This document shows positions 1 to 63,754 of a stretch of DNA of 64,000 bases, piece by piece. Position 1 is the stretch's first letter; every line of letters begins with the position of its first letter. This DNA comes from Eledone cirrhosa. Lineage: Eukaryota. The notes beneath the pieces were generated by a model. The model saw nothing but the letters and a program-made list of their open reading frames with translations. It was not told the origin of the DNA and searched no databases. Where the stretch lies: the NCBI GenBank assembly GCA_964016885.1, contig OZ024742.1:118048001-118112000 (forward strand). The letters run 5' to 3'. The translations under genes and the position numbers were made by a program.

Positions 1-637
1 TTCAAAAAACGTTGCAACCGGAGGAAGACAGGAAGACGATACTTTGGTTCGTGGAAACGTTCGCTGGCAGAGAACGGGAAAAAACGAATATAATACGTCA
101 TTAATAGGAGCGGTGAAAAACAATTACGCGCAATTACGACCTCTTTTATACCATAAACGTGGTTCTGTCTTTGCGTGTAATTGTTTTTCACCGCTCCTAT
201 TAATGACGTATTATATTCGTTTTTTCCCGTTCTTTGCCAGCGAACGTTTCCACTAACCAAAGTATCGTCTTCCTGTCTTCCTCCGGTTGCAACGGTTTTT
301 TGAAATATCCACTTCTGCGTTTACAGATTGACTTTGTTAGTTTCAGAAGATCCCGTTAAGGGCGAAAGCAGCGATTCTTTGCTTAAACTTTAATCTGTTA
401 TTTTAATAAATATTTGCTCTACGGTTCTTATATATTTGATATATATTTATCCTTATCGAGCCCTCTTTGGATTTTAGTCTTCAAATTTATTATTATTACT
501 ATATATATATAGCGATTCTTTGCTTAAACTTTAATCTGTTATTTTAATAAATATTTGCTCTACGGTTCTTATATATTTGATATATATTTATCCTTATCGA
601 GCCCTCTTTGGATTTTAGTCTTCAAATTTATTATTAT

Positions 638-1036: not shown

Positions 1037-1038
1037 AA

Positions 1039-1235
1039 AAGTGGTTACACAACAGTTAGTTCACCATACCGAGAACAATTGTTTCACCTTAGCGGATCGT
1101 CAGCTGAGGATCCGCTAAGGCGAAACAATTGTTCTCGGTATGGTGAACTGACTGTTGTGTAACCACTTCTACCTAACTCGTCCCATGGACTGAGTGCTCT
1201 ACCACTACGGATATTACCTTCCAGTGTTCTACCAC
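1039..1235. mobile_element. Miniature foldback derivative of Penelope-like family B (pLTR only, with hammerhead motif)
   Basis: 1039-1103 is the reverse complement of 1104-1169, centred on CAG|CTG. The right arm plus tail match ~8943-9076. Flanked by (TA)n. Confidence 0.9.
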
Positions 1236-4624: not shown

Positions 4625-4675
<51 letters not shown>

Positions 4676-5310
4676 AGGATGAATATAAAATGAAAGTGCT
4701 TTTTTTAAAAAGGAATTTATTAGGTATTGACATATGTTTCTGTAACAGACGGAATACCTATGTATCGCTGCTTGCGTAATCATATAATGTTAGCAAGTAT
4801 TCGATAGCAAATGTATAATCAGTTGTCACTTCTTCAGAGATTTTGGATAAATTGGATAAAATCAGAAAAATTGAAGTATTTATATTAGTAATAGAGGAAG
4901 AAAAAGAGGGAATAGTATATGACAGATGGTAAATTAATTTACTGCTAAACAAGTATATAATGGGTTTCTAATGAGAATACCATGAGTAAATCTAAATAAG
5001 AATTTTGGGAGTGCCAATTTTAATCTCTACTTGACCAATTGGACAGTGGACAGGGCTGGTCATTTGGTGCAGTAGTATTAATTATAAAGTGTCAATTGGG
5101 GAAGGGGGAGATTTCGATTGCTACTAAATAACATCAATGCTAGTAGCCAGCTGGTATATGCATTAGGGAATTGAATCAAGAAATCAAAAATCTCATTTTA
5201 TCTATAGCAGTTTATATTAAAAGGTAAATAATAGAAGAGTTGATAGAATTAAGACTAATAAAGAATGTTAATATCTATTTTGACAATCAAACGGAGATAG
5301 AGACAGGCGT

Positions 5311-6260
5311 TCAATCCTGGTAGTATTTATAATATGAAAATATAGATTTTAAGCGATGGTTACAGTATAACGATCGCTCTATTTTGTTATTTAATAAAAT
5401 GTTTTGGGATTTCATAATACAAAATAATTCTACATTACATAATTTACAAAATTCCTGTCCATGGGTAATGGGGGGGGGGGCAGCCGCTATTATATCCCAT
5501 TTTAGGTGAAATTGTTGGTTATTTTCACGCAGCTGCCAAGCCTTGTCTGCGAGTGTTGTTACATAACGCTGGTTTTCATGTTTTATCGAGTAACGATGTC
5601 TATAAAGGCGTGATTTGAAGGAGGTGGCTGTAGATCCCACATAGTACCACTTCTGTCTATCCGATTCGATAGTACATTTGTATACGATGTTGCGTTCAAG
5701 ACACTGATTGTTCAACGGACACATTCCTGGTTAGACACAGTTGCAATTAGAATTTTGCGTTGTTGTATTGCCATGGATGGGTTGATGAGGTTGCTTATGT
5801 AGGACAGGATGTTGTTTGTTGTTTTGTGATGTTATAGCTAATGTTTTACGTGTATTGTTATGTGTTGGAAGGCGTTTATACAACCGTTTTGCGTTAAGCT
5901 TTTTTATATGTTGTTCAATATTAGGGGCGGTTGAATATGAAAGTCGAATAGTGTTAGGGTTTAAGATTTTATTATATTTATGTGATGTTGGAAAGTGTTT
6001 TTTAACTAATCGAAAGAATTTTGAGGGTAGATTGATTTTAATAGAGTTGTTATAGACCGGGTTGTACCAAATATACTCCTTACATCGCCTTCTGTTTGGT
6101 GGTGTGCGACTATTATTGTGTCTATTGCGGTAGTGTATGTATGGTGGTGATTCTGTGCTATTTCTACTCCTATGGGATTTATTTTGGGTGTTTTGGTGAT
6201 CTTCGACTATATACTCTATATTATCTAGGTGACCGACTTTCCTAAGTGCATCATCATAAC
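5311..6260 (-). pseudogene. PLE RT-thumb/linker + GIY-YIG endonuclease (family A, left arm), one in-frame TAA
   Basis: IWYNP..KHFP..KILNPNTIRLSYS; CNC-x4-CPL-x3-C; IVYKC..YVGST..FKSRLYRH; CKLC..E..N..CNH. The stop at 5731-5733 is CAA in the right arm. Confidence 0.9.
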
Positions 6261-6262
6261 AT

Positions 6263-7055
6263 CCACCAAACAGAAGGCGATGTAAGGAGTATATTTGGTA
6301 CAACCCGGTCTATAACAACTCTATTAAAACCAATCTACCCTCAAAATTCTTTCGATTAGTTAAAAAACACTTTCCAACATCACATAAATATAATAAAATC
6401 TTAAACCCTAACACTATTCGACTTTCATATTCAACCGCCCCTAATATTGAACAACATATAAAAAAGCTTAACGCAAAACGGTTGTATAAACGCCTTCCAA
6501 CACATAACAATACACGTAAAACATTAGCTATAACATCACAAAACAACAAACAACATCCTGTCCTACATAAGCAACCTCATCAACCCATCCATGGCAATAC
6601 AACAACGCAAAATTATAATTGCAACTGTGTCCAACCAGGAATGTGTCCGTTGAACAATCAGTGTCTTGAACGCAACATCGTATACAAATGTACTATCGAA
6701 TCGGATAGACAGAAGTGGTACTATGTGGGATCTACAGCCACCTCCTTCAAATCACGCCTTTATAGACATCGTTACTCGATAAAACATGAAAACCAGCGTT
6801 ATGTAACAACACTCGCAGACAAGGCTTGGCAGCTGCGTGAAAATAACCAACAATTTCACCTAAAATGGGATATAATAGCGGCTGCCCCCCCCCCCCCATT
6901 ACCCATGGACAGGAATTTTGTAAATTATGTAATGTAGAATTATTTTGTATTATGAAATCCAAAACATTTTATTAAATAACAAAATAGAGCGATCGTTATA
7001 CTGTAACCATCGCTTAAAATCTACATTTTCATATTATAAATACTACCAGGATTGA
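6263..7055 (+). pseudogene. PLE linker + GIY-YIG endonuclease (family A, right arm), frameshift in poly-C
   Basis: ORF 6482-6937 encodes the same protein as the left arm until the C-run at ~6885-6897. Confidence 0.88.
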
Positions 7056-7525
7056 ACGCCTGTCTCTATCTCTGTTTGATTGTCAAAATAGATATTAACA
7101 TTCTTTATTAGTCTTAATTCTATCAACTCTTCTATTATTTACCTTTTAATATAAACTGCTATAGATAAAATGAGATTTCTGATTTCTTGATTCAATTCCC
7201 TAATGCATATACCAGCTGGCTACTAGCATTGATGTTATTTAGTAGCAATCGAAATCTCCCCCTTCCCCAATTGACACTTTATAATTAATACTACTGCACC
7301 AAATGACCAGCCCTGTCCACTGTCCAATTGGTCAAGTAGAGATTAAAATTGGCACTCCCAAAATTCTTATTTAGATTTACTCATGGTATTCTCATTAGAA
7401 ACCCATTATATACTTGTTTAGCAGTAAATTAATTTACCATCTATCATATACTATCCCCTCTTTTTCTTCCTCTATTACTAATATAAATACTTCAATTTTT
7501 CTGATTTTATCCAATTTATCCAAAA

Positions 7526-7640
7526 TCTCTGAAGAAGTGACAACTGATTATACATTTGCTATCGAATACTTGCTAACATTATATGATTACGCAAGCAGCG
7601 ATACATAGGTATTCCGTCTGTTACAGAAACATATGTCAAT
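7526..7640 (+). ncRNA. Degenerate type I hammerhead-like motif with long stem II (family A pLTR); mirror at 4726-4840(-)
   Basis: CTGAAGA at 7529; stem II GTGACA/TGTTAC enclosing ~75 nt; GAAAC-ATAT-GTC with a palindromic stem III; stem I pairs poorly. Confidence 0.55.
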
Positions 7641-7797
7641 ACCTAATAAATTCCTTTTAAAAAAAAGCACTTTCATTTTATATTCATCCTTTCTACATTT
7701 TCTCCGGAATATAATTTATACTCGTTGAGCAAACCTGCACGTACGCTGTTCATCTCTAACGTAACGATATATTATCACTACATTACTGATAACCTGA

Positions 7798-7854
<57 letters not shown>

Positions 7855-7859
<5 letters not shown>

Positions 7860-9073
7860 GTGGTTACACAACAGTTAGTTCACCATACCGAGAACAATTG
7901 TTTCACCTTAGCAGATCCTCAGCTCGTAATGGACATGGTTATACGGAACAGGAAGGACAACCGTACGAACGCGCATGCGCAGAAACGGTCACTTCACACA
8001 CGCAATACTAAATTGCGTGCGAGAGGTGTAAGAGAGATAACTGCGAAAGTTCGAAAGTTTCTGGTTGATAAGAAAATTAGGATGATGTTGTAATTCAATC
8101 CGGAGCAACGTGTGAAGAATTCATTCCTCGTGTTTAGGCAATCACTATTGCGTAATCTCTTTAGAATATTTATTCGTTCATCAATACATAGTCCACACGA
8201 CGGATTGCCCCTTCCGTATGGCTTGGACTTAGTGATGGCTTTCCATTCAATGGAGTAGTCTATACTTGAGTCCTTGAGGGACCATACCTGGCTCGAGAGT
8301 TTCGTGGATGAACGTCTGTCCGGGTACTTAAACGTCGATTGGTGGTTCAGGAAGCGTTCCTTAAATTGGCCCTCCGCCATACACACATAGGATTTGACCT
8401 CCTGTGGTAGATTTGGTCGTTTAGAAGTGACCACAGCTTCATAAACTACAGCGGGTGTGTTGCATTGCTGTTGAAGGGGACAAGCTTAGGGCTTACGACA
8501 AGAGCACCCTGGTGGGGTTCTGCTCTTAGAGCTGTTGGTGATGTGGGCCTTCATGTTCTTAGCACATGAGTATCCTAGTTTTACTTTGTGTCAGTTAAAG
8601 ATGGAGCGGTATTTATGACCTATGGGAAAGTGTCTATCTAAGAGGGCTAGGCATTTTTTGCCTACATTGGTTTAACGTTGAGTGAGAAGGGAGGAGAGAA
8701 CCAGATAGTTTGTCTATTGTTACGTTTTCTTTTCTTATTGCTGTTGTTGTTAACTACAAAGCTCCGGATTGAATTACAACAACATCCTAATTTTCTTATC
8801 AACCAGAAACTTTCGAACTTTCGCAGTTATCTCCCTTACACCTCTCGCACGCAACTTAGTATTACCTGTGTGAAGTGATCGTTTCTGCGCATGCGCGTTC
8901 GTACGGTTGTCCTTCCTGTTCCGTATAACCATGTCCATTACGAGCTGAGGATCCGCTAAGGTGAAACAATTGTTCTCGGTATGGTGAACTAACTGTTGTG
9001 TAACCACTTCTACCTAACTCGTCCCATGGACTGAGTGCTCTACCACTACGGATACTACCTTCCAGTGTTCTAC

Positions 9074-9076
<3 letters not shown>
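7855..9076. mobile_element. Penelope-like element family B copy 1 (Naiad-type), foldback insertion in (TA)n
   Basis: 7855-8106 mirrors 8761-9012; tail 9013-9076. The minus strand encodes IWFSPPFS..HFP..KLGYSC..CSCRKP*ACPL..VYEA..FKERFLNH..CGLC..E..LNTRNE. Confidence 0.92.
8935..8984 (+). ncRNA. Minimal type I hammerhead ribozyme (family B pLTR); mirror at ~7884-7933(-)
   Basis: Stem I CCAT..CGAG/CTCG..ATGG; core CTGAGGA; stem II T-CC-GCTAA-GG-T; GAAAC-AATT-GTT (palindromic stem III, GUU site after 8974). Confidence 0.8.
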
Positions 9077-9171
<95 letters not shown>

Positions 9172-9419
9172 TTGCATACTTACATGTTTACACTCACATT
9201 CATTTACATACATACACTCCTACAGATATATTTACGTACACACATATACGTCCTTATATGTACACACACATTGGTACATAGATATCCAGCCAGCCCCACA
9301 GGTGCGCTTGTTTCATGCGTATATTTAATCCTAACACATTTTCTTAACTTAATTTTTATTTACAATTCATATATATACTTATTTATCTATTTTTATTTAT
9401 ATAATGATTCAGGTATTTA

Positions 9420-9840
9420 AATTTGAATCTTGGGTAATGACCGAAAGGAAACGATCACGATTACAAGCGGCCGAAATGGAATTACTCCGAAGGGTATTTG
9501 GAGTAACATTACTCGATAAAGTGCGTCGCTCCGAGATCAGAGAGTCACTCCAGATAGAGTTGTTACTTTTCCGAATTGAGAGATCACAGCATGTAGTTAG
9601 AATGTCTTACGAGTACCTGGTTAAATCGCTGGACAGATTTTACGGGCAAAACCAGCCAGCAGGAGACCCGAGGATAGAGCCCCCGCAAGCAGCTTGGATA
9701 ACATCTTTGAGCTTGGCTGGTCTCGCTTGAGGATCCAGCCTGATCAGTTGGAGACGGTTTCTTCTGACAGGACCCGCTGAAGGGATTGTTTGAGGACTCT
9801 GCCCCCACAACCCTCTCAGAAATATGAGGGCGAAGAAGAA
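9420..9840 (+). mobile_element. Expander/Rex3-like RTE LINE 3' fragment
   Basis: ESWVMTERKRSRLQAAEMELLRRVFGVTLLDKVRRSEIRESLQIELLLFRIERSQ; ends GAAGAAGAA. Confidence 0.85.
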
Positions 9841-10944
9841 AAAGGTAATTACATTTTATAGTGTTAATATTGTTCAATTGTAAAATTAAAACTTCTTTAA
9901 ATCCCACGTTACCATATTATCGAAATATTACAAGATTATTTTTATTAATATGTATTTATTGCAAATATGCAAATATACAAATGAGAATTATTTTCATTTA
10001 AAAAAGATTTTTATGTTAATTATTTTCATTTTCAAAATTAGTGTTCATTTCATTATGTTCTATAAGTATCATTAAATAATAATTGTTTTACCTATGTACA
10101 TTACCCAATGTTACCTACAAAAGTATCGCCTCAAAATGACCCAACATATGATGGGTCAAATATTTCATGATATTACGCAGGGTTGATAATCTGGGAATGT
10201 TAATATATTCAAATACTTATTCAATATGTCAGACAGATACATTCTAAATTGTTAATAGGAAAATGAGTTTGCAAATGCCAGAAATTTATAAGAGAGAATT
10301 ACTTTTTATCCGTAGATGGAATAACTAGCTCCAACTGGGAATCAGAACCAACTCGTGGGCTTGTCTCAGTGGGATATTACTGATCCTTGAACATTGGAAG
10401 TCACAGTATGTTAATCTCGTAAAAAGCTGTGCCTATGAAATGGCATTTTGTTCTTTAACGATTTTACATTGCCATATGACATTAACTTTTGTTAAGAAAG
10501 ATAATGTCAGCTATCTTATAAATAAACTGAGTTGTAAACGGAATTCCTTTAAATTACACCAGACAGCATACTTCTTTGTCTATAGCTGGAATGTCGGCCT
10601 AATCTATTTGATATTAACCCAAACAGTTAAGCCTAACTGGATGGTTCATCTTAAGTAGCAGAAAATATTTTATGTACTGTTAAATATACATCGATAAAGC
10701 AAACAACAATCAGTAGTTATGTCGTGAGACTTTAACGTACCATGAGGAGATAAAATAGGTTGTCAACTATATGTACGGTTGTATTCATCCGATTTATCTC
10801 GTGCGTATTGAGTCATCGTCTAATACATTTTAAATAGAACTGAATATAAATTCTATAGTAATTTCAGCAAAACTTAATCAAATTTGATATGTTACTATTT
10901 CAATTGTCCATTTTCATTTTGTCTACTATTTGCAGGAAATATTG

Positions 10945-11745
10945 TCAAGACGTGTGGACAACGTGTGAAGAATTCATTTCTTGAGTTTAGGCAATCGCTA
11001 TTGCGTAATCTCTTTAGAATATTTATTCGTTCATCAATAATACATAGTCCACAGGACGGCTTTGACTTAGTGATGGCTTTCCATTGAATGGAGTAGTCTA
11101 TACTTGAGTGCTTGAGGCACCATACGTGGCTCGCGAGTTTCGTGGATGAACGTCTGTCCGAGTACCTAAAGGTCGATTGGTAGTTCAGGAAGCGTTCCTT
11201 AAATTGGCCCTCCGCCAAACCCACATAGGATTTGACCTCCTGTGGTTGATTTTGTCGGTTGGAAGTGACTACAGCTTCATAAACTACAGCGGGTGTGTTG
11301 CATTGCTGTTGAAGGGGACAAGCTTAGGGCTTACGACAAGAGCACCCTGTTGGGGTGTTGCTCTTAGGGCTGTTGGTGATGTGGGCCTTCATGTTCTTAG
11401 CACAGGAGTATCCTAGTTTTACTTTGTGTCAGTTAAAGATGGAGCGGTATTTATGACCTATGGGAAAGTGTCTATCTAAGAGGGCTAAAAATTGTTTGCC
11501 TACATGGGTTTTAACGTTGAGTGAAAAGGGAGGAGAGAACCAGATAGTTTGTCTATTGTTACGCTTTGTTTTCTTATTGGTGTTGTTGTTAGTGGGAGAG
11601 TAAGTGATAGGTTGCGAGAAGCCGCATGCGCGTTCGTACGGTTGTCCTCCTGTTCCGTATAACCATGTCCATTACGAGCTGAAAATCCGCTAAGGTGAAA
11701 CAATTGTTCTCGGTATGGTGAACTAACTGTTGTGTAACCACTTCT
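10945..11745. mobile_element. Penelope-like family B copy 2 (GIY-YIG on minus strand, inverted pLTR piece on plus strand)
   Basis: ~10950-11590 is homologous to ~8107-8750. 11622-11745 matches the pLTR, has the hammerhead core mutated to CTGAAAA, and ends at CACTTCTA|(TA)n. Confidence 0.88.
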
Positions 11746-11756
11746 ATATATATATG

Positions 11757-12010
11757 CAAATATACGTACGAGAAAGTATACGTACCTTCACAAAACATAC
11801 AGGTAATATATACTTACCTATACAAATAAGTAATGGTATAAACATAACATATACTTAGCTACCACATCAAGACGTAAAATATTCGCATATAGTTCGTACT
11901 ATCCGTTAGGGTATAATGTGGGACTGTAATACAGGAAAGTTTTGTGCAATTTATGTTTACAAGCCGTATGTTTTGTGAAGGTACGTATACTTTCTCGTAC
12001 GTATATTTGC
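11757..12010. mobile_element. Degenerate foldback fragment, probably Penelope-like
   Basis: 11757-11800 is the reverse complement of ~11966-12010; TGCAATTTATGTTTACAA (CNLCLQ) resembles the C-terminal CxLC motif. Confidence 0.45.
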
Positions 12011-12264
12011 TTGTATATGTTATGACGTATATATTATATATACTGGTACATGTGCATATGGTTATGTGTATGCGTGAGTTCTGCGTCTGTGTGAGTATGC
12101 GGGTTCGTACGTATGTAGGGTGTGTGTATATGTGTACTTTGTGTTTTGGTTGACGTACGTATGTGTACATATGTGTATTTACATGTAGGTATGTGTGTGC
12201 GCGTTATATATATATTTATGTGTGTATATAATTATATGTATACACACACACACACACACACACG

Positions 12265-12328
<64 letters not shown>

Positions 12329-12589
12329 TTTTATATATTTTTTATGTGTATTTGGTGTATACGTTCGTATGTGTGCGGGTACAGGCGTTGCGTGGGTTGT
12401 GTATGTGTGTGCGTGTTTTTTGTGTGCGTGCTTGTATTTGCATACCCATTGCGGGTGTTTTCGCGTATGCTTGTGTGTGTACGTATATGGATGTGTGTAT
12501 GTATATATTTAATTTCAATTACCTCTGTAATTTATTTACTTTATTCTTAACTCTGAAGCCGAGAATCATCCGGTTTCCTAAATAGAATT

Positions 12590-13013
12590 TTACTCTACGA
12601 CTTCAGTTATACCATATACGTGGTTTTGTCTTAGCGTGTAATTGTTCTCACCGCTCCACATAATGACGTATTATCTTCGTGTTTTCCGTTCATCGCCAGA
12701 GAACGTCTTCATGAACCACCTAAGAGAATATTAGTCTACGACTTCATTTATACCATAAACGTGGTTTTGTCTTTGCGTGTAATTGTTTTTCACCGCTCCA
12801 AATAATGACGTATTATCTTCGTTTTTTTCCGTTCTTTGCCAGGGAACGTTTCCACGAACCAAAGTATCGTCTTCCTGTCTTCCTTCGGTTGCAAAGTTTT
12901 TTTGAAATATTTACTTCTGCGTTCACAGATTGATTTTTTTAGTTTCAGAAGATCCCGTTAAGGGTGAAAGCAGCGATTATCTGCTTAAACTTTAATCTGT
13001 TATTTTAATAAAT
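12590..13013 (+). mobile_element. Family D element with an internal ~140-bp tandem subrepeat
   Basis: ~12595-12720 and ~12736-12860 are diverged repeats; 12736-13013 is homologous to 135-413; ends TTTTAATAAATA|(TA)n. Confidence 0.8.
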
Positions 13014-13033
13014 ATATATATATATATGTATAA

Positions 13034-13129
<96 letters not shown>

Positions 13130-13291
13130 CGTTGAATAATGCTGCTAATTTTAGTGGCAACTCGACATGTTTATAATATCCAGCTTTTATCAGCGACCTG
13201 ATTTGCGTGTGTGTCACTTTAACGGCTTGACCGCATGCGTTGGGCAGGGAGCATAATATTTACTTGCTATACCTTATAGCGTGGAAATAGG

Positions 13292-13372
13292 GCTGTCTGA
13301 AGATTCATTTCTTTCCATTGGAAATTCGTTGGATTTCCAATCTTTCGGAATGATGAAACCGTCGGTAACAGC
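13292..13372 (+). ncRNA. Type I hammerhead ribozyme
   Basis: Stem I GCTGT/ACAGC; CTGAAGA; stem II TCATT/AATGA extended by ATTGGAAAT/ATTTCCAAT; GAA; stem III ACC/GGT around GTC; GUA site after 13367. Confidence 0.88.
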
Positions 13373-13748
13373 ATCTGAACAGGTGATTATTTAATCATTT
13401 TTTAATTTATTTAGAAAATTGTTTAATAACCGTTTGTTTCGCTACTTTTATATTGTTCTGGTATCTCGAATTAGTGCCATTGAACCACATGTATTATAAA
13501 GAACTTGAATATTTCTACAAGTACATTGTACCTGTTGAAGTATCCATCCACTTCTATAATTTATTCTCCTTACGTAGAGAACAAAACGTTGAATAATGCT
13601 GCTAATTTTAGTGGCAATTCGACATGTTTATAATATCCAGCTTTTATCAGCGACCTGATTTGCGTGTGTGTCACTTTAACGGCTTGACCGCATGCGTTGG
13701 GCAGGGAGCATAATATTTACTTGCTATACCTTATAGCGTGGAAATAGG

Positions 13749-13829
13749 GCTGTCTGAAGATTCATTTCTTTCCATTGGAAATTCGTTGGATTTCCAATCT
13801 TTCGGAATGATGAAACCGTCGGTAACAGC
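13749..13829 (+). ncRNA. Type I hammerhead ribozyme, second tandem copy
   Basis: Same sequence as 13292-13372; predicted cleavage after 13824. Confidence 0.88.
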
Positions 13830-13901
13830 ATCTGAACAGGTGATTATTTAATCATTTTTTAATTTATTTAGAAAATTGTTTAATAACCGTTTGTTTCGCT
13901 A

Positions 13902-13983
<82 letters not shown>

Positions 13984-14498
13984 TTAGTTAAGCAAAACAA
14001 GACCACAAATTTCACAAGGAAGACATTATTAAAAGATTGTCAACATATTTAGTTTGATGTAAGGAATGTAGAGAATAATAATAATAATAATATAAATAAT
14101 AATAATGCCCGTTTACAATTGTTTCGCTACTCTGTATAATATTTCTGGATCAGATGACTATGTATCATAATTGATCTGGTTCAGTTGAAAATAATTAACA
14201 TATTTAAAAAAACTGAGTGGCTCATCGGAACTCAAAGGAATATAAATTAAAATAATGTTACATAATACAATGTTCCATATATTAGTTTTTACTATTGTGC
14301 CTTTGTTTCATCAGCTGTCAGCCATAATCAAGCAGTACTCATCTGTCGAGGCTGCATTGTGTGAGATCTGCCTATGGGTAACAAGATGGCTGCCAAAGGG
14401 CATATTTACCTTACCTATTAGAGGGTGGTTTCAGGGGAAGTAACTTCTCAAGAGATTAGAGATTGTGTGTATTTTATAGTTATGTGCTAGTATTTAAA

Positions 14499-16472
14499 TT
14501 ATTTAATTGAGAGACAATGTAGGGGAAGTAACTTATAATTATCGAGTTGTTCATAGCAATTTAACTTATTAGCTACAATTAGAGATGGGGCTACATGACT
14601 AAGTTGGGTCAAAAAAACTCTATTGGCGAAGGAATTAGCCCTTCGATGTTGACAGCTAATGGTTACCTCCGTTCTATCGTTAATTGGTAGAGGTTTTGAT
14701 AGAGTTATGTAATATGCTTCCGTAACGCAGAGATCACAAGATTTCCTTCGTCCATTGAACGGTTGGGCCCTAGCTACGATATCCCATCTTAGTGAGTGTT
14801 GAACTTTGTTTAATTTAAGGTTTTTAATAAGCCTAGCTAGCGATGTCGAACATCTGTTGCTCGGGTCTCGGAAGGAAAAAGAGTGCGCGTTATAGCGTAC
14901 CTTAAAAGGGTTAGAGGTAGATCCGATATAAGAGCTGGTATTCGAAGCAGTCTCAACTGTGCACCTATAGACTATGTTGGGTGTCAGGCAGTGTCCATTT
15001 AATGGGCATGCATTGGGGTACCGGCAGTTGCAGTTGCTTCTGCGGTTAGTTATAGTAGGGTTATTTAACCTAAGCAGTTGGTCCATGCTAGAAGGATTAG
15101 ATGGAGGAGGTGTGCTACTAGAGTAATTATTAGTGTAGAGGCTGGGTGTATTTGATAGGGGTGGTGGTACCGCGGTGTGGGAGTTATAGTGTCTTAGCTT
15201 ATGATGGTTACTGAACGCGATGTGGCTAGCTAGGTTAGGTGTAGTGGAGAATGAGATTTTAATGTTGTTTTTATTAAAGAGTTTGTAATATCTATGCTAA
15301 GGGGGGAAGTGTTTGGATAGGATAGAGAAGAAGCGATTGGGGATATTAATGGCTAGATTAGATGAGAATGGTAGGTTAAGCCAGGTGATATTTCTAGGCC
15401 TATTCCTTCTAGGGGTTCTAGTGGAGTTGGTAGGGGCCTTCCTAGGGTTATTATTACCTGGGGGTTTGTTATTTGTCATCCCATTTCTCATTCCTATTCT
15501 AGGGTTGATTCTAAGTTTGCTACTAGGAGTGGGGAGCAGGCCGCTTCCACCATTAAAGTTCCCTGTATAGGTGCTGTTACTGCTAAAATTCCGGCGAACC
15601 TGGTTATATGCTAAGGTATTTCTAGTTCTAGTGTTAAGTTTATTATGGTGAGTTGCTGTGTTATGGCATTTTGGTATGTAATAAATTGATTGTTTATAAC
15701 CAGATTCAGAGAGAGCCTTATTATAATAATGTGCGTGGTTTATAAATATCTCTTCATTTGCTGATAGCATTGAGATCCTATAGGAGATAGATTTGATTAC
15801 TGCTCTGATGACTGCCGGTGGGTGGTTAGAGTGTGGGCTAATATATGTGAGTATTTCGCCTGGTTTATGGTAAGGGTTATAAAGGTTATTGTTGAGATCA
15901 AGGGTGACGTCTAGGAAGTTTACTACTTTATGGTTCAGCTCGATGGTGATAGAGAGACTGTTATTTTTGAAGAATCTATGAAATTGTTTCTTAAGCAAAT
16001 CGATTCCCCGATTAGTGCAATTGTGGACTGCAAATAGGGCGTCGTCCCTGTATATTCCACCTTGCATGGGTTGGATTTCGGCTCTGATGTTACGTAATAG
16101 GTAAATCCCAACTAAATCGGTGACTTGCGCGGAATCACTTGAACCCATCGTAATGTCAAAGTTATCTGTTCTATCTTTTCTAGTCCAGAGTGCTCCGTTG
16201 AATTCAATGATAGTCTGCCTAGCCATGAGTGTGATGTTAATCTCATTATTGGTTATGTCCGAGTTGGTGGTTGCTAGGGCTAGTGCTTTGTTGAGCAGTT
16301 CCGGGGTTATTGACGCATAATAGCTGTCTATATCAAATTGGATGAACCTCATAGATTGCTTGGACCTTAGATCGGAGAACCATCTGATGACTTGGCCGGT
16401 GTTGGACCACCTCTTGTAGGTGATATCATCCCGTAGCCCAGGGATTATCCTATCAAGGATGCTCTTACTGAT
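14499..16472 (-). pseudogene. PLE reverse transcriptase + GIY-YIG endonuclease, 5'-truncated, single in-frame TAG
   Basis: FIQFDIDSYY, TMGSSDSAQV, YRDD, VNFLDVTLDL, SNHPP; then CNC..CPLNGHCL, IVYRC..YIGST, CDLC..E..CQH. ORFs 15297-16499 and 14499-15086 share a frame across the TAG at 15297-15299. Confidence 0.93.
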
Positions 16473-17825
16473 TCGCCGGAATTTTAGCAGTAACAGCACC
16501 TATACAGGGAACTTTAATGGTGGCAGCGGCCTGCTCCCCACTCCTAGTAACAAACTTAGAATCAACCCTAGAATAGGAATGAGAAATGGGATGACAAATA
16601 ACAAACCCCCAGGTAATAATAACACTAGGAAGGCCCCTACCAACTCCACTAGAACCCCTAGAAGGAATAGGCCTAGAAATATCACCTGGCTTAACCTATC
16701 GTTCTCATCTAATCTAGCCACTAATATCCCCAATCGCTTCTTCTCTATCCTATCCAAACACTTCCACCCTTAGCATAGATATTACAAACTCTTTAATAAA
16801 AACAACATTAAAATCTCATTCTCCACTACACCTAACCTAGCTAGCCACATCGCGTTCAGTAACCATCATAAGCTAAGACAATATAACTCCCACGCCGCGG
16901 TACCACCACCCCTATCAAATACACCACGCCACTACACCAATAATTACTCTAGTAGCACACCTCCCCCATCTAATCCTTCTAGCTTAGGTTAAATAACCCT
17001 ACTATCACTAACCGCAGAAGCAACTGCAACTGCCGGTACCCCAATGCATGCCCATTAAATGGACACTGCCTGACACCCAACATAGTCTATAGGTGCACAG
17101 TTGAGACTGCTTCGAATACCAGCTCTTATATCGGATCTATCTCTAACCCTTTTAAGGTACGCTATAACGCGCAGTCTTTTTCCTTCCGAGACCCTAGCAA
17201 CAGATGTTCGACATCGCTAGCTAGGCTTATTAAAAACCTTAAATTAAACAAAGTTCAACACTCACTAAAATGGGATATCGTAGCTAGGGCCCAACCGTTC
17301 AATGGACGAAGGAAATCTTGTGATCTCTGCGTTACGGAAGCATATTACATAACTCTATCAAAACCTCTACCAATTAACGATAGAACGGAGGTAACCATTA
17401 GCTGTCAACATCGAAGGGCTAATTCCTTCGCCAATAGAGTTTTTTTGACCCAACTTAGTCATGTAGCCCCATCTCTAATTGTAGCTAATAAGTTAAATTG
17501 CTATGAACAACTCGATAATTATAAGTTACTTCCCCTACATTGTCTCTCAATTAAATAATTTAAATACTAGCACATAACTATAAAATACACACAATCTCTA
17601 ATCTCTTGAGAAGTTACTTCCCCTGAAACCACCCTCTAATAGGTAAGGTAAATATGCCCTTTGGCAGCCATCTTGTTACCCATAGGCAGATCTCACACAA
17701 TGCAGCCTCGACAGATGAGTACTGCTTGATTATGGCTGACAGCTGATGGAACAAAGGCACAATAGTAAAAACTAATATATGGAACATTATATTATGTAAC
17801 ATTATTTTAATTTATATTCCTTTGA

Positions 17826-17946
17826 GTTCCGATGAGCCACTCTGTTTTTTTAAATATGTTAATTATTTTCAACTGAACCAGATCAATTATGATACATAGT
17901 CATCTGATCCAGAAATATTATACGGAGTAGCGAAACAATTGTAAAC
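17826..17946 (+). ncRNA. Type I hammerhead variant (CCGAUGA core) with ~75-nt stem II insert; mirror at 14111-14231(-)
   Basis: Stem I GTT/AAC; CCGATGA; stem II GCCACTCTGT/ACGGAGTAGC with a nested CAGAT/ATCTG hairpin; GAAAC-AATT-GTA. Confidence 0.7.
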
Positions 17947-18292
17947 GGGCATTATTATTATTAATATTATTATTATTATTATTATTCTCTACATTCCTTA
18001 CATCAAACTAAATATGTTGACAATCTTTTAATAATGTCTTCCTTGTGAAATTTGTGGTCTTGTTTTGCTTAACTAATGAATATTTCCAGCTCTGCGCACC
18101 TAACCTCTGCATGAACCCAGCCACCTAGCTGCTTTATACTGCATATTGCACATTGAGCACATGCCTTTACGCTTTGGCTTCTAACTAACTCACCAATCTT
18201 TCCTCTCATATCTCCTCTACTATTTCAATCTCTCTCTTTAAGATTGGTTACTCTTGAACTATGTATATATATATATATGTATGTATGTATAT

Positions 18293-18497
18293 ATATAATA
18301 TAGAAATGGCTTCTACAGGACTAGACTGTTTCATTCGAAGGAAATCATCAGGAAAGCCATACAAGAAAGCTTTCCTGATGATTTCCTTCGAATGAAACAG
18401 TTCTAGTCCTGTAAAAGCCATCTCTATATTGAATATTTATACTCTGCTATGTATTTCGGACCTTACTGTGGTTACGCCCGATTGAACCCGGGATATA
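18293..18497. mobile_element. Miniature hammerhead foldback element, family F copy 1
   Basis: ~18297-18358 mirrors ~18369-18430; tail to ~18497; homologous to 62631-62820; TA-rich flanks. Confidence 0.88.
18369..18418 (+). ncRNA. Type I hammerhead ribozyme (family F)
   Basis: GCTTTC; CTGATGA; stem II T-TTC-CTTC-GAA-T; GAA; stem III ACAG/CTGT; GUA site after 18413; (G/A)AAGC. Confidence 0.78.
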
Positions 18498-18800: not shown

Positions 18801-19117
18801 CGCGCGGTTAAACCACTGGGAGTGAAATACCCCTAGCCTTTGTCTGGGCATTCTTCTAGGAGAATTTAACTCAGGAAACGAGATAACTCCGATATAAAAC
18901 CTGCGGCTCAGTAGTTACCGATGATGTTGATCGTTTCTTCTTTTCGGGTTATAGCTACTGTCGCTCAGAGAGTGGGATTGGCCTAGTGCACAGTCTTTCC
19001 TCACTTGAAAAAATATCTTCACGCACGGGCATTGAACGATAGAATTAATTAATAATTATTAATAAATGGTATATCGTGCAATGGCCATACTCGATAACGA
19101 GTGGGCAGCCATAATAA
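18801..19117 (+). mobile_element. Bipartite non-autonomous RTE derivative (RTE-tailed SINE-like element)
   Basis: Body matches 23414-23678; 3' end TCGTGCAATGGCCATACTCGATAACGAG..GGCAGCCAT matches the RTE 3' end at ~30500-30538. Confidence 0.8.
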
Positions 19118-22645: not shown

Positions 22646-22703
22646 CTTTATGCTCTGATGAGTCCCACTTATAGTGTGGACGAAACACTGTTAGCAATTA
22701 AAG
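22646..22703 (+). ncRNA. Type I hammerhead ribozyme (family G, solitary)
   Basis: Stem I CTTTA-TGCT/AGCA-at-TAAAG; CTGATGA; stem II GTCC-CAC-ttata-GTG-t-GGAC; GAAAC-ACT-GTT; ~130-nt tail, then TA repeats at ~22828. Confidence 0.82.
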
Positions 22704-23163
22704 ATATACCTATGTTCTAAGCGTTCTTTGTTGTTAATTATATTACGGCTCTGTCCTCAGACATCGAGCTAACCTTATACTGCCTATTGGATAAGTGGAG
22801 TGTTACACACTCCTAATCCTCTCCCTTATATACTATATATACACATATACATTCAACACAGAGTAGAGAGTTTGACAACAGGTCGGTGATTTTAGTCTAG
22901 ATAGGGTAATGACATCGGGCCTTAAGAAAACAACTTTAACAATAATAATTTTTCTGCTTTTAGCATGGAGCCAGCGATTGCTCCAGCGCATTACTGGTAC
23001 TCTCTTTTGTTGACTCCGTGGGGATGAAAGGCAAGGCAAGGGCCATAGCTGTAAAGTAATTATAATAATACTGAACGGTAACACGAAAGGCTTCAACTAT
23101 ACGAACTCTTTTGAAAGTCAACAGTTGACATAATCTTGTAATCTTGTATCAGTAATGGCGGTA

Positions 23164-23699: not shown

Positions 23700-26600
23700 A
23701 CCACACCTACAACAAACACAGACATACCCGAAACAACACCACCAAAACCATCACCACCACAGTCACCAAAACGAAAACAAATAAAACCACACCAACAAAA
23801 TGTTAAAAACTTCGTGCTTGTCAGAAGGGCCAACGATAAACTGATGTCCCTCTTAGCACGAAGCAAGGACATTCAAACAGAGGGGGAGATTTTTGAAAGG
23901 AGCACATTTTGCATGCCAGAAGATTTGCTTCTGGTCCGAATATAATTCAATTCCTTCAAAGAAATTTGAGAGAGCTTTCCTCAAGACATGGGAACCCCGA
24001 ATGTGAAACCCACATCGAGACTTTTAAAGGGGTTCCCAAAAGAAACCCCACCAACCATGGAGGTCGAACCACCCGACCTTCACAAGACCCCGGGAGGTAA
24101 GTAAACCTTCCCTCCCTCTCTTAGCTTACCAACATGGCCATATCAAGTTTAAATGTTCGCGGAAGTTTAAATGTTCGCGGCCTGGGGTCACCCTGGAAGC
24201 AGGGTCGCCTGCTCAACGACCTCAGGTCGCTGGAAATGGATGTGATTGCCGTCAGCGAGACCAGAACTTCCGACACGCGCACACTAGCTCCCATTTTCGA
24301 CGACTATCAGATCTTGGCATCTGTTAGCAGGCCGGGAATGGGGGGTAGAGTGGCAGTGCTGTTTAGGAAAGGACTGGATCTCGAGGTAAGGTCGATCTTC
24401 CGGGACCCGGACGGTAAGTTGGTGGTCTTGGATGTGAGCAGTAGCGAAGGTGGTGCCTTTAGACTGCTGGCCGTCTACGCCCCTTCAGGGGCCGGACGAC
24501 CGGACTTCTTTAGGCGCCTGGAGACCTTTCTGGGTACGTCTCGCCCTTTACTGTTAGCGGGGGACTGGAATGGCATCTTAGACGCACGCTGGGATTGTGT
24601 GGGAGTAGCCGATAGGAGCGGAGGGTGCAAAAGCCTCAAGCACCTACTCAGCCAGTTCCAACTGTCTGACAGGTATCGACTAGATTTTCCCAATGTGCCA
24701 GTATGGACATGGACCAACCGAATGGGGTCATCTAGATCGTATATAGACAGGATCTTCATTAGGAAAATAGATAGAAATAGTGTAGGCTGCTCACTTTTTA
24801 AAGCGGTCGCCTATTCAGATCACAAATTTGTGATCTGTACGGTCGACCTAGATAAAACGCATAGGTTAGGACCGGGTTACTGGAAGCTGAACATGTCATT
24901 TCCGGCACGTAAGACTTAGAGGGACTGAGTCAACAATTTACTTAAGCAAAAGTTGACAGGGGGATCATCAACAACAGATGTTGGGGAGCTCTCAAAAGAG
25001 AGATTTGAGTAACTTCGATAGAGTTCAGCAAAGAACTAGCGTTAGAGAAAAATAGAAAGGAGGGGGAGCTGGTAGATAAGTTAGACGAGGCTATTTGTAG
25101 TGGCATTGTAACCGACGTGCTAACGGCAAGAATGGCATTAGACCATTTCTTCAATGCGAAACACGAAGGTTGCATTGTCAGAGCTAAGGCGCGTGCGCTG
25201 AGAAACGAGGGAACCAAAGCTGTTCGATGGGCCCGCGTGGCGGAGGCGCAGCGTGGTAATAAAACCACAATTCGGTCTTTGTGAACCGAGACAGACACGA
25301 GATAAGCGATTCCAAGCGGATGTGTGAGGCCTTTCGCCGGCACTTTGCTCGGTTGTTCGGGGAAAGTGGCGAGTCAGAAAGAGTAGCGGATTTCAGTCCC
25401 TACCTTGACGGCTTGCCGCGCATCTCGACGCTCGACGCTGAGCGCTGCGAAAGGCCGATTACTTCAGCCGAAATTCAGGACGGCCTTGTCGGCTGCATGA
25501 GGCGCAAGTCACCCGGTTTGGATGGCCTGCCCTACGAGCTTTACGTAAATATGCCAGACTTGTTCTCCGATCTCCTCGAAGCACTCTACTGCAACTGGCA
25601 GCAGAATGGGAGTATTCCCAGTTCTGTGAGCAGGGGAGTGGTGACGCTGATAAGGAAAGACGAGAACAAGAGGGATACATTAGACAACTTCAGGCCCATA
25701 ACTCTGCTCAACACAGAGTTTAAGATTTTGGCCAAGGTGCTAGCAAAGAGATTGGCGCTTGTCGTCGAGGATTTGGTTGAGGAGGCGCAAACTTGCGCAA
25801 TCCCAGCCAGGTCCATACACGACAATCTCCACCTGATGCGATATATCATAGAGAGGGTAGGGTATAAACCTGGCTTCGGTGGGGCACTGATCAATTTAGA
25901 TCAATCGAAAGCATTCGATAGGGTCGTCCATCGGTATCTGGAGTTTGTCCTCAAAGCAGCTGGCTTCCGCCCTGTCTTCAGAAGCTGGATCGCTGCAATG
26001 CACAGCGGCACACGCTCGGTGGTCAAGGTTAATGGCTACCTCTTGGAACCATTTCGGCTCTCCCGATCGGTCCGTCAAGGGTGCCCTCTCTCTTCCCTTC
26101 TGTACGTATTCACTCTCGAGCCTTTACTGCGGAAGCTGGGGCTGTTGTAGGGCATTCCGCTCCAACCGGGACGTGGAAAGGCGGTGTCGGCTTATGCGGA
26201 CGACATCACCGTGATGGTGTCGAACACCTCAGAAATCGAGGTGGTTGGCACCTTATTGAAGGAATATGAAAGGTTGACAGGAGCCAAACTTAAACCGGAA
26301 AAGTCGGTGGGCTTGCAGCTCGGAACCTGGAGATACAAGCCCATGCCGTCCAACAGCGTTGTGGGGCGCTGGACGGACGGACCGGTAAAGTTGCTCGGGG
26401 TCTGGTTCGGACCAGACCTCCAGGTGGAAAATAATTGGGACGAGATAACGAGCAGAGTAGCCAGTCTCACCCAAAAATGGGCTGGGAGGAAGCTATCACT
26501 GAAAGGTCGCGCGGAGGTGGCGAATGCGTACATCGCGTCCGTCATCTACTACCGCTTGACCGTCGTGCCTTGCCCCCGTCCGCGCCTCATCAAGTTGGAA

Positions 26601-60376: not shown

Positions 60377-60388
60377 CGACAAATATGG

Positions 60389-60725
60389 ATTCAAGCACTC
60401 GACGTTATGTTACTTCTTCAAAGCAAGAATGACGGACTATGATTAGAATGAGGAAAATGCGAAACTGTGATACCTATTTCAATGACAATCATGGTACTTG
60501 ATTAATTAACCATTCTTGTGATATCAACAGACAATGACATTGAGTAAAAGGTTACGTTTCCAAGAATGGTTAAATAATCAAGTGACCATGATCGTCCTTG
60601 AAATATGTATCACGGCTTAATTAATAAACAACTCTTTAGCATCTACAGCTTCGGCTTATTCTCATTCTAATTATACTCCGTCATTTTTGCTTTGAAGAAG
60701 TTACATGACGTCGAGTACTTGAATC
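60389..60725. mobile_element. ~340-bp imperfect palindrome (MITE-like or old foldback)
   Basis: 60389-60452 pairs with 60661-60725; ~60465-60518 pairs with ~60561-60615. Confidence 0.65.
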
Positions 60726-62506
60726 GAATTGCAGAATTCCAGCTATGCCTACCGTATGTATTTAGCTCCGCCTGTTGAGCGCTTTTTGATACAATCCGAT
60801 AAATTTGATGAAGTGAGGCATCGGCTAACTACTACACCCGGAAACTCCCTCTACTGCTTGGACCAAGTTTACTTATTGGATTTCCCTAACAGTTGACGGA
60901 AATGTAATTATAAACCAACTTTTGACCGCATTAATAAGAGAACAAAAAGCAACGATAACCTCTTACTTTCCCGCAACACCTTTTATTTCTCATTAAAACC
61001 TGGAAACGTAGTCCCCTGCTAAGTACAATCCTGCCTCATCTAACCAAGAACGACCGGAGAACTCTATCTGCACCCGGTATGAACTGAACTGACCAAAACA
61101 CCCAAAGCACTGTGAATATAACTGGACTCTATATTTCGTCACTTCTACCTTATTCGCAATCAAACATTTGTCACATATGTTTTCCTTTATTTTTTCTTTA
61201 TAACTCCTTTTTCTTCTTTATACTTTTTCTTACATTTTCCTACTTGATTGACTGGGATATCAACTATATGATTATTTAATTATTACGTTCTACAATTTAA
61301 ATTCACCTGCTATTTTTCATGATGCCAGTTTTTTTCTAGTCTGGCTTCATAGCAAATCAATAGGCTATCTATCCCATGGATACTTCATATAAAATTCAAT
61401 TGTTAATCACTATCAACATTTAGTATCCAATTCTAAACTCAATTTCTATCACTATGATAGAATTTATATATATGTGTGTATGTGTGCCTTTGCGCGCGTG
61501 TGTGTGTATGAATATTTAAGAATGCATCCGTTTTCAAGACGAGGAGTTATCTTACTTTTATTTTTTAGTTAGGATTAGCTTCAGGCTCTATCCACCCACT
61601 CCTAAGACCATAACATATAGATGCTTTAACAACGCATAATTTCTGAGTTTTAGTATGTGTGTATTTTACCTTACTGTTACTTTACCATGTGTTTATGCTA
61701 ACACACACATATTTGACTTTGAAAATTTTTTACTAAATGTTTCGTATCACGTGTATATTCTACCATGTGAATATTAAAACATAATTGTATCTTATCATGT
61801 AACTATTTAAACATATGGGAATATAATAAACTTGGCACATAGATTACTGAATCACGCTACATATTTTACGGTATTTAGTTAGGTATCTTACTGTTTTTAT
61901 TCCAATTGTTGCCGACTTCGACATTGAATTCTATATTTAGAAATCGTTTAAAGTCATTACAGTTATATATGTGATTCGGTGATATATTGATTCGGTCGAC
62001 TCTGTTTAATCAGCTGTATATAGTACTTAATGATTATTTTGCCTCGGAGTATGTTTACAGGAGCTCTTACGAAGTGAACATAACAGTTTATTCATATATT
62101 GTTATATAGTATCATTATCTTGAATATATTGAAGTATAAAAAATGTACTTTCATGTGATCAGATATTTTACAAATAGTACACTGGTTTTATTTGTTTTTT
62201 GAATAATTTGAAATATATATATGGATGGATGCTTATCTTCCAGTGAAAGATTAGTGAGAGAGAGAAAGACAGAGAGAGAAAGAGAGAGAATGATGGATAG
62301 ATTGATGGATTTCTTCCAGACAAGAAGGAGTGAGAGAGAGAATGATAGAGAGGAATTGAAAAAGAAAAAAATCTAGAGGAAAAATGGCGATTAGTGGTGT
62401 GGAGAGGGGAGACTGGTATGTCGAGGCAACTGCTTGTCTTCAACAAAAGGACCTTTCTAGGCACAAACCCGTGGTCATTTGTAATCATAGGAGCATCTCA
62501 ATATTT

Positions 62507-62820
<314 letters not shown>

Positions 62821-63035
62821 CACACACACAAATATGTATATATCATCGCGATGTTGGTATATTGTTGTTGTTCAACCCCAGGTCATTCCAAATTCGGTAG
62901 ACCTATAGTAAAGTACAACCCAGCCTTGATTATCTCGTCTTATATTGTACCGAGAACTATGTACTGAGAACTATATTATTCAACGTGTCATTTAAAAAAA
63001 CTGTGGAACGTGATATACTGCTATTTCTAGTAGGT

Positions 63036-63613
63036 CAATCCCTTACGTTATTTCGATATTTGTTCAATCCCTTACGTTATTTCGGTATTTGTTCAATCCC
63101 TTACGTTATTTCGATATTTGTTCAATCCCTTACGTTATTTCGGTATTTGTTCAATCCCTTACGTTATTTCGGTATTTGTTCAATCCCTTACGTTATTTCG
63201 GTATTTGTTCAATCCCTTACGTTATTTCGATATTTGTTCAATCCCTTACGTTATTTCGGTATTTGTTCAATCCTTTACGTTATTCCGGTATTTGTTCAAT
63301 CCCGTACGTTATTTCGATATTTGTTCAATCCCTTACGTTATTTCGGTATTTGTTCAATCCCTTACGTTATTTCGGTATTTGTTCAATCCCGTACGTTATT
63401 TCGATATTTGTTCAATCCCTTACGTTATTTCGGTATTTGTTCAATCCCGTACGTTATTTCGATATTTGTTCAATCCCTTACGTTATTTCGGTATTTGTTC
63501 AATCCCTTACGTTATTTCGGTATTTGTTCAATCCCTTACGTTATTTCGGTATTTGTTCAATCCCTTACGTTATTTCGGTATTTGTTCAATCCCTTACGTT
63601 ATTTCGGTATTTG
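63036..63613 (+). repeat. 29-bp minisatellite, ~20 copies (CAATCCCTTACGTTATTTCGGTATTTGTT)
   Basis: Head-to-tail units with no spacers; variants mainly TCGG/TCGA and CCTT/CCGT. Confidence 0.97.
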
Positions 63614-63754
63614 TAATCGTATTTCGTTTGTCATTGAATTAAATTTCTCCCGAAGTGAAATTCATCGTCGTTTTGCAATGTAAGGCACAACTGGTTAAAT
63701 ATACAGTATTTGCTATGCAATGACCTGCAGAGATACTGCGATAAAATATTGGTT

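Follow-up and report, generated by a model that had tools for sequence, protein, structure and literature searches.

How do two arms of one Penelope-like element (PLE) come to lie head to head, one of them ending at a TA inside its pseudo-long terminal repeat (pLTR) and the other running on through a further tail? The question was raised by a 64,000-nt stretch of the Eledone cirrhosa genome (contig OZ024742.1 of assembly GCA_964016885.1, positions 118,048,001 to 118,112,000 of the forward strand), which is called the window here. The best model, to which a probability of about 0.55 was given, is twin priming: both nicked strands of a (TA)n target would prime reverse transcription at two internal, hairpin-set sites, the inner one aided by 2–5 nt of UA pairing, and host end joining would follow.

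The foldbacks were mapped by self-comparison (self-BLAST) of the window, and all counts cover this single window. Three long foldbacks with head-to-head arms were found, each lying between tracts of (TA)n: A (4673–7802), B1 (7857–9076) and C (13981–18259), in agreement with an earlier note on this DNA. There were also a broken foldback (B2), three mini foldbacks (mini-B, E1, and E2), one foldback cut by the window edge (D1), a non-inverted element (D2) and a direct tandem (F). With pure microsatellite palindromes and dispersed copies left out, the inverted pairs numbered 11, six of which had two readable ends (A, B1, C, mini-B, E1, and E2; the readable foldbacks). The other five were D1, B2, whose long arm lacks the 3′ end, the pair at 60388–60725, which is too diverged, the pair at 11748–12018, which shows no PLE feature, and the pair at 19027–19086, which was left out. 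The readable foldbacks and their parts were as follows.

4627–4672, no strand: (TA)n target to the left of A, from the self-comparison.
4673–6262, minus strand: tail-less arm of A, 1590 nt, with the end of the reverse transcriptase (RT) thumb, a CxCX5C linker, a GIY-YIG endonuclease broken by a stop, the 3′ untranslated region (UTR) and the pLTR as far as the inner TA.
6263–7693, plus strand: tail-bearing arm of A, 1431 nt, with 9 substitutions relative to the other arm and a core-less hammerhead remnant near 7609–7652.
7694–7695, plus strand: inner stop of A, TA, overlapping the target by 2 nt.
7696–7802, plus strand: tail of A, 107 nt, with a bulged-hairpin pattern at 7702–7729 whose 3-bp base is disfavoured in the predicted fold.
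7803–7856, no strand: (TA)n common to A and B1.
7857–8752, minus strand: tail-less arm of B1, 896 nt, with an endonuclease lacking its final CxH; it diverges from B2 at 8106/8107.
8753–8760, no strand: filler at the head-to-head junction of B1; six of its first seven nt match an inverted copy of the left arm's end.
8761–9010, plus strand: tail-bearing arm of B1, 250 nt, carrying a type I hammerhead that has its core at 8945 and its cut site at 8974.
9011–9076, plus strand: inner stop of B, TA (9011–9012), and a 64-nt tail with a bulged hairpin at 9017–9036; (TA)n follows at 9077–9170.
13981–16471, minus strand: tail-less arm of C, 2491 nt, with a 5′-truncated RT, an N-rich stretch, a CxCX5C linker and a GIY-YIG endonuclease; one in-frame stop near 15297.
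16472–18079, plus strand: tail-bearing arm of C, 1608 nt, with a hammerhead-like motif (U4C core) at about 17824–17945.
18080–18259, plus strand: inner stop of C, ATAT (18080–18083), and a 176-nt tail with a bulged hairpin at 18089–18158.
1038–1235, plus strand: mini-B, with 68-nt arms overlapping at AGCT (1102–1105) and the inner and outer stops of B1.
18303–18492, plus strand: E1, with a tail-less left arm, a hammerhead, TATAT at 18425–18429 and a 63-nt tail running to a short TA and (CA)n.
62638–62815, plus strand: E2, with the stops of E1; its shorter arm is the tail-less one.

All six readable foldbacks had an inverted 5′-truncated copy at the 5′ end and a tail at one end only. (TA)n lay on both flanks of A, B1, C, mini-B, and F and on one flank of family E. 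In each of the six, the minus arm ended at an internal site containing TA, and the other arm continued past this inner stop for 107 nt (A), 64 nt (B1), 176 nt (C), 64 nt (mini-B), 63 nt (E1) and 67 nt (E2), a range of 63–176 nt; a continuation of about 65–180 nt had been claimed for A, B1, and C. One inner and one outer end were thus combined in every readable foldback, which has a probability of 1.6% under independent choice at 0.5. Some claims of the earlier note held only in part. The rule was to apply across families, but D2 and F carry no inverted arm. The tailed arm was to meet (TA)n as well, which it did in A and B1, but both E tails met a short TA and then (CA)n, and that of C met TATG(TA)n. 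The tail-less arm was indeed the longer one in A (1590 vs. 1431 nt), B1 (896 vs. 250 nt) and C (2491 vs. 1608 nt), and E1 had 58 vs. 56 nt, but as a rule this failed in B2 (122 nt vs. at least 664 nt), E2 (49 vs. 56 nt) and mini-B (68 nt in both). All six readable foldbacks carried the tail at the right, on the plus arm; B2 had the opposite orientation, and 6/7 was not significant.

Could such inversions be fold-back chimeras of reads or of the assembly? Assembly is difficult where palindromes adjoin microsatellites (Craig et al., 2021, PMC8557442), and the foldbacks were judged from the assembly alone. However, the arms differed by 9 substitutions in A, 7 in B1, 23 in C and 4 in mini-B (0.6–6%), with a transition excess of 27:16 (p = 7e-5 against 1:2). 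The stops were family-specific and recurred in separate copies, the spacers continued the open reading frame (ORF), and the same layout has been published in the clade for Penelope-13_HM, which is listed with an inverted 5′-truncated copy (PMC8557442). The earlier argument from arm substitutions was therefore borne out by the 27 transitions and 16 transversions over four foldbacks and by the recurrent stops, and an artefact appeared very unlikely.

The coding families were assigned by their motifs. The left arm of C had the order RT, linker, endonuclease, i.e., an RT followed by a C-terminal GIY-YIG domain. Its RT had 72 relatives (to E = 1e-74), of which the named animal ones came from cephalopods, a sea cucumber and a sea anemone. 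Pfam gave no name to the RT; its GIY-YIG match was weak for C (E = 0.08, below the cut-off) and absent for A and B. The CxCX5C linker was found in A, in C and, with a stop inside, in B, and the 5-residue spacing occurred in 26 of the 42 linker-bearing relatives. CCHH was absent, with 0–1 Cys within the GIY-YIG core of A, B, and C. CxxC before the E and CxH after the N were both present in A, C, and B2, and the H was missing in the left arm of B1. DKT and RWK lie 5′ of the truncation in all window copies; among the 72 relatives, mostly partial, DK(T/S) was present in 24 and an upstream RW(K/R) in 14. The Hydra clade is described as having CxCX5C, no CCHH, and CxxC and CxH around the E and N, with nearly all families inserting in (TA)n (PMC8557442). 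Judged by these motifs, A, B, and C are divergent Hydra-clade PLEs; Neptune, Nematis, Penelope/Poseidon, and Naiad were rejected on the missing CCHH and the domain order. Families D, E, F, and a further element H, which have no ORF, are placed in this clade provisionally, by hammerhead style and flanks only. The families had been called unrelated, which did not hold: the endonuclease regions of A, B, and C were 29–35% identical, and all matched relatives of the RT of C. Between the RT thumb and the linker of C there was an asparagine-rich stretch (15400–15700), which resembles the N-rich inserts described in rotifer PLEs (PMC3846280).

The inner stop was also read in copies that were not readable foldbacks.

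10959–11622, minus strand: long arm of B2, at least 664 nt, pLTR end absent.
11623–11746, plus strand: short arm of B2, 122 nt plus TA, tail-less, with the inner stop of B1 and an 8-bp palindrome at its start.
1–499, plus strand: D1, a foldback cut by the window edge, with a tail at 414–499 and a hairpin from 416.
12581–13015, plus strand: D2, non-inverted and tail-less, with a hammerhead-like motif (U4A core) at 12946 and an inner stop ATAT at 13012–13015.
13128–13910, plus strand: F, 1.7 units of 457 bp in direct tandem, bounded by (TA)n on both sides, with hammerheads at 13297 and 13754.
13128–13910, plus strand: stops of F; unit 2 ends at TATAT, and in unit 1 the same site is followed by a hairpin at 13455–13485.

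As the earlier note had stated, the inverted arm stopped at an internal TA in A (7694–7695), B (9011–9012) and C (ATAT, 18080–18083), B2 stopped at the site of B1 (11745), and family D did so too (D2 at 13012–13015, judged against the tail-bearing D1). Mini-B used the site of B1 with its last base changed from C to T, and the TATAT of F unit 2 was judged against the longer copy. The inner stop was reused in 3/3 tail-less arms of B and in 2/2 of E (within 1–2 nt), and the outer stop in 2/2 of each family. Each family had a fixed inner stop, a UA-rich spot 12–138 nt past the hammerhead site, and a fixed outer stop that lay 63–176 nt beyond it. F was dropped as a two-ended case; its unit boundary was set by its own 5′ truncation, which left one stop only. 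Two further D-related sequences were seen, a local duplication of the last 130 nt of D1 including the tail (370–640) and a decayed third D fragment (1262–1314), which ends near the inner stop and is followed by 15 foreign bases.

The inner stop overlapped the (TA)n target by 2–5 nt in 6/6 families. For the null, every breakpoint within 100 nt of each stop was scored for overlap between element and tract, in both tract phases, over 2,000,000 draws. The summed overlap of the six families was 22 nt against a null mean of 5.9, a value reached in 187 of the 2,000,000 draws (about 1e-4). The chance of a TA in all six inner stops was 2.7e-5, and 4e-3 for A, B, and C alone. Overlap alone is insufficient to choose the site, because 12 of the 21 TA runs within 100 nt of the stop of A were longer than the run used. 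Shared accessibility was not found at the inner stops, where the unpaired probability ran from 0.04 to 0.99. If both arms had carried tails at insertion and one tail had later been deleted between the internal TA and (TA)n, the TA overlap would be expected, and microhomology deletions do disable rotifer PLE copies (PMC3846280). However, with 12 TA runs available, 3/3 B arms had the identical stop, both E copies shared theirs, A used a 2-nt site despite the longer runs nearby, and exactly one arm was always affected. Later deletion is therefore highly improbable.

The stop had been placed downstream of the hammerhead, which held in B, D, E, and F for the candidate hammerheads matched by a hand-built descriptor. 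It matched B, E, F and, with one core change (U4A), D, but not A and C; by eye, the core of C was U4C and that of A was lost. Rfam gave no hammerhead in the window at the gathering score or at E up to 5. In the minis (1102–1105, 18360–18369, and 62686–62688), both arms stopped about 8 nt or less from where the hammerhead core begins on its 5′ side, which looks like stalling of the RT. Since these arms run past the hammerhead cut site, the mini templates were uncleaved. Stem III was self-complementary in A, B, and C (approximately 7633–7640, 8966–8973, and 17934–17941). PLE hammerheads are thought to act as dimers, and close opposite-strand pairs and dimeric hammerheads have been noted (PMC4209133). 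The self-complementary stem III could pair two template RNAs in one particle.

The tails of different families had no clear sequence similarity. They were opened by a shared hairpin with a base stem RCTC/GAGY (GTTC/GAAC in F), a 3′ bulge of 1–2 nt and a stacked upper stem, which began 1–6 nt 3′ of the TA run of the inner stop in 5/6 families. Shuffled tails passed the pattern at rates of 0.01–0.12 and window positions at 10%. The probability that at least 5/6 families have the hairpin within 12 nt of the tail start was 1.3e-6 from the shuffles or 5.8e-5 from the 10% window background. The evidence for the hairpin lies in its position; the pattern is common on its own. The base stem paired with a probability of 0.72–0.97 in B, C, D, and F, and compensatory swaps were found in two base pairs (G-C/A-U and C-G/U-A). 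One element was outside the set from which the pattern was drawn, and it had the hairpin 4 nt past TATAT.

22651–22828, plus strand: H, held-out element with a canonical hammerhead, TATAT at 22739–22743, a bulged hairpin from 22748 and a TA-rich flank; no ORF.

Among the consensi in the supplement of PMC8557442, a hairpin after a TA run was seen by eye in Hydra-2_Ajap, Hydra-2_Amil, and Hydra-1_Crog (one mismatch), and another at the 5′ end of Hydra-1_Ajap. It was not seen by eye in Hydra-1_Obim, and the Hydra-1_Amil consensus ends before the site.

The tails looked non-coding: they did not encode the N-terminus of related proteins, the best of many weak matches having E = 0.025. The Hydra-1_Ajap consensus stops at a TA run at its 3′ end, and by eye its first bases resemble the tail of B (PMC8557442 supplement). 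In two complete Hydra-clade consensus 5′ ends that were counted, the ATG lay about 115 and 173 nt in, within the range of the tails here. Because the hairpin opens the Hydra-1_Ajap 5′ end and the ATG distances match the tail range, the tail is probably the start of the 5′ UTR of the next tandem unit, with an outer stop that is internal and not the extreme 3′ end of the RNA. The earlier note had placed the second priming site at that extreme end. This is probably wrong, as both starts of PAc, a Poseidon element from Anolis, are internal (Frangieh et al., 2024, PMC11167929) and the Hydra consensi place the tail in the next unit. The tail of C met the tract at an ATG (18261–18263), 178 nt past the inner stop and near the 5′ UTR length of Hydra-1_Obim, which may be chance in TATG.

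The head-to-head junctions were mixed. Mini-B had the 4-nt AGCT overlap, B1, E1, and D1 had short templated fillers, E2 had about 1 nt added, and A was near blunt. The C junction appears to have an overlap of about 4 nt, since the relatives have G (24/27) and then K or R (19/27) before ISK. Mixed junctions of this kind resemble host end joining, such as the joins made by polymerase theta. In A, B1, and C, the short arm carried the tail that the long arm lacked. The short arm is thus not a simple fold-back copy of the long arm, unless the latter was trimmed later.

Such trimming belongs to an earlier published view, in which self-priming (snap-back) gives a hairpin DNA and, before this integrates, the GIY-YIG endonuclease cuts the inner TA of the element on one side. 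Junction palindromes have led to the proposal of self-priming on an antisense template (PMC3846280), and the tail has been ascribed to endonuclease resolution (PMC8557442). The TA preference of the enzyme would account for the TA overlap, and the mini-B and B2 junctions lie on 4- and 8-bp palindromes. However, the 160–880-nt spacer of A, B1, and C sits in the tail-less arm, so the trimming must always strike the first-made arm. No palindrome was found at the A, E2, and C junctions, the non-inverted D2 and F ended at the same kind of site, and the in vitro starts map to tail ends (PMC11167929). Snap-back is considered unlikely here.

In the twin priming model preferred here, an RT-endonuclease, probably a dimer, would bind a transcript extending across the pLTR and into the 5′ UTR of the next unit and would hold the hairpin at the tail start. 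Both (TA)n strands would be nicked by the enzyme of the element. One 3′ end would form 2–5 nt of pairing at the UA immediately 5′ of the hairpin and prime there, and the second would prime at another internal site, 3′ of the hairpin. Both cDNAs would end early, and host end joining would unite their 3′ ends head to head and fill the second strands. The templates of the two cDNAs may be a single RNA, separate RNAs, or different units within one tandem RNA.

In L1 twin priming, two target ends prime, the inversion has a microhomology-type junction, non-overlapping RNA parts are copied and copying starts at the poly(A). By contrast, the arms here share 50–1600 nt of the same 3′ sequence, head to head. 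The earlier note drew the same contrast, which stands for the shared 3′ sequence but loses force should the template be a tandem transcript containing two pLTRs; such an RNA could still be copied without overlap. The L1 type might then apply, with the target ends priming in different pLTR copies of one transcript and the arms merely looking alike. PLE loci are tandem or partially tandem with multi-copy RNA (PMC11167929, PMC8557442), F is such a tandem, and the short arm of B1 (250 nt) is about one pLTR. On the other hand, A and C would require upstream partial copies of at least 1.4–1.6 kb, and the constant pairing of inner with outer end (1.6% for 6/6 by independent choice at 0.5) would remain unexplained. 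This variant is rather improbable.

Sequence variants within family B were too scarce to distinguish a single template from two. Three breakpoints coincided in this family (8106–8107, 8753–8761, and 10959): the 5′ end of the B1 short arm, the CxH loss of the B1 long arm, and the divergence of the B2 long arm from B1. Their coincidence may reflect a template jump and a short pLTR RNA whose 5′ end is fixed. No B pLTR remnant was found to the left of B2 (scores of 24–25 against 22–36 for shuffles).

The pairing of ends (6/6 mixed, 1.6% if independent) motivated a speculative extension of twin priming, which is telomerase-like; telomerase and the PLE RTs are sister groups. The hairpin might serve as a binding or boundary element and the UA 5′ of it as the alignment region for the nicked (TA)n primer. 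Two RT subunits might load on either side on one RNA and follow each other as a convoy, with the rear subunit displacing the cDNA made first. Every insertion made by convoy copying would then have exactly one arm with a tail and one without, as in the 6/6 here. The tail-less arm reached as far or further 5′ in A, B1, C, and E1, with a tie in mini-B, and was 7 nt short in E2; B2 does not agree with this extension, and we doubt it.

Several points weigh against hairpin-set twin priming. The hairpin pattern was drawn by eye, post hoc, from these tails and the published consensi, and a stricter version still matched 51 times in the window. Neither copy of family E passes it, E1 retaining the 5′ half and E2 the 3′ half, and the base stem in A pairs with a probability of 0.01. 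H is a single copy in the window without a tail-less counterpart, so its TATAT is only a putative stop. The old foldback at 60388–60725 gave no clear fit: its two arms both contain a hairpin match (60675), and the longer side has a further, minimal match at 60765. No window sequence runs past an outer stop, whose internal position rests on published consensi judged by eye. The basis is sequence from one window with six readable foldbacks. That both cut target ends prime at two RNA sites and that the cDNAs are joined head to head, as the earlier note proposed, fits the anatomy, the in vitro precedent (PMC11167929) and the internal-UA statistics. However, the junction would be identical if the endonuclease had cut the element itself at its TA, and a TA junction on its own cannot separate priming from such cutting.

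Other sequences of the window were also recorded. The region of the old foldback (60377–60790) has arms that are 88% identical (aligned columns) and a degenerate hammerhead. A dense nest of decayed non-LTR (long terminal repeat) retrotransposon ORFs (endonuclease-RT types), arranged in repeated blocks, lay at 23700–55000, and a tandem array with a period of 58 bp at 63022–63614. An inverted repeat of 45–53 bp around 165 bp (11748–12030) begins at the short TA tract of B2 and is possibly a miniature inverted-repeat transposable element. As a PLE, 11748–12018 was rejected, having no PLE feature, hammerhead match or TA overlap.

The origin of tandem and inverted PLE insertions and the choice of microsatellites as targets have been named as an open task (PMC8557442), and a TA stop just before a small hairpin suggests how copying starts. 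If the UA-plus-hairpin signal and the strict pairing are true clade-wide, they would offer simple mutational tests and a rule by which curators could set Hydra-clade ends. Should either the hairpin or the pairing fail genome-wide, only an ordinary case of published PLE anatomy would remain. The feature is real, and its layout and the two-start logic are already published; the long tails, the inner stop overlapping TA, the tail hairpin and the strict pairing of inner with outer end appear to be new. The literature searched, with incomplete coverage, held nothing on Hydra-clade tail length, TA overlap of the inner stop, a tail hairpin, or PLE twin priming.

The canonical PLE has an inverted 5′-truncated copy and a tail of 30–40 bp, often at one end only (PMC8557442), and the same layout is given in PMC3846280. 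Here, the tails are 63–176 nt, the arms reach 1.4–2.5 kb, and the target duplication is unreadable in (TA)n. The Hydra clade (Craig et al., 2021) is alike in CxCX5C, the lack of CCHH, CxxC and CxH, (TA)n insertion and a U-U first pair in stem II of the hammerhead, and differs in that the hammerhead cores are degenerate here in A, C, and D; the parts of PMC8557442 examined are silent on tails in the Hydra clade, on a TA at its inner stops and on any hairpin in the tail. Non-LTR retrozymes (bioRxiv 10.64898/2026.07.22.740005) are matched by the short tandem F, with a type I hammerhead per unit, and by the pLTR-only minis; the passages of that preprint searched contain no "tail" and no foldback analysis. 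F resembles a non-LTR retrozyme in its 457-bp units, which are 99.7% identical with one hammerhead each, and it ends by the same TA-plus-hairpin rule.

The closest experimental system is PAc, in which both strands were nicked and extended in vitro by a predicted dimer, with two internal starts bounding the tail and an uncleaved hammerhead template (Frangieh et al., 2024, PMC11167929). The window elements are similar to PAc in two fixed stops bounding the tail (here genomic stops in B and E, not enzymatic starts), an AT-rich target and a stem-loop in the start region. The PAc start is non-homologous to the target (main text), lies inside the ORF and showed no difference between the strands (PMC11167929), and no precedent for TA overlap at the inner stop was found in the literature searched. 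In the window elements, by contrast, the inner stop overlaps the target by 2–5 nt, the tail looks non-coding, and an inner end is paired with an outer one in each readable foldback.

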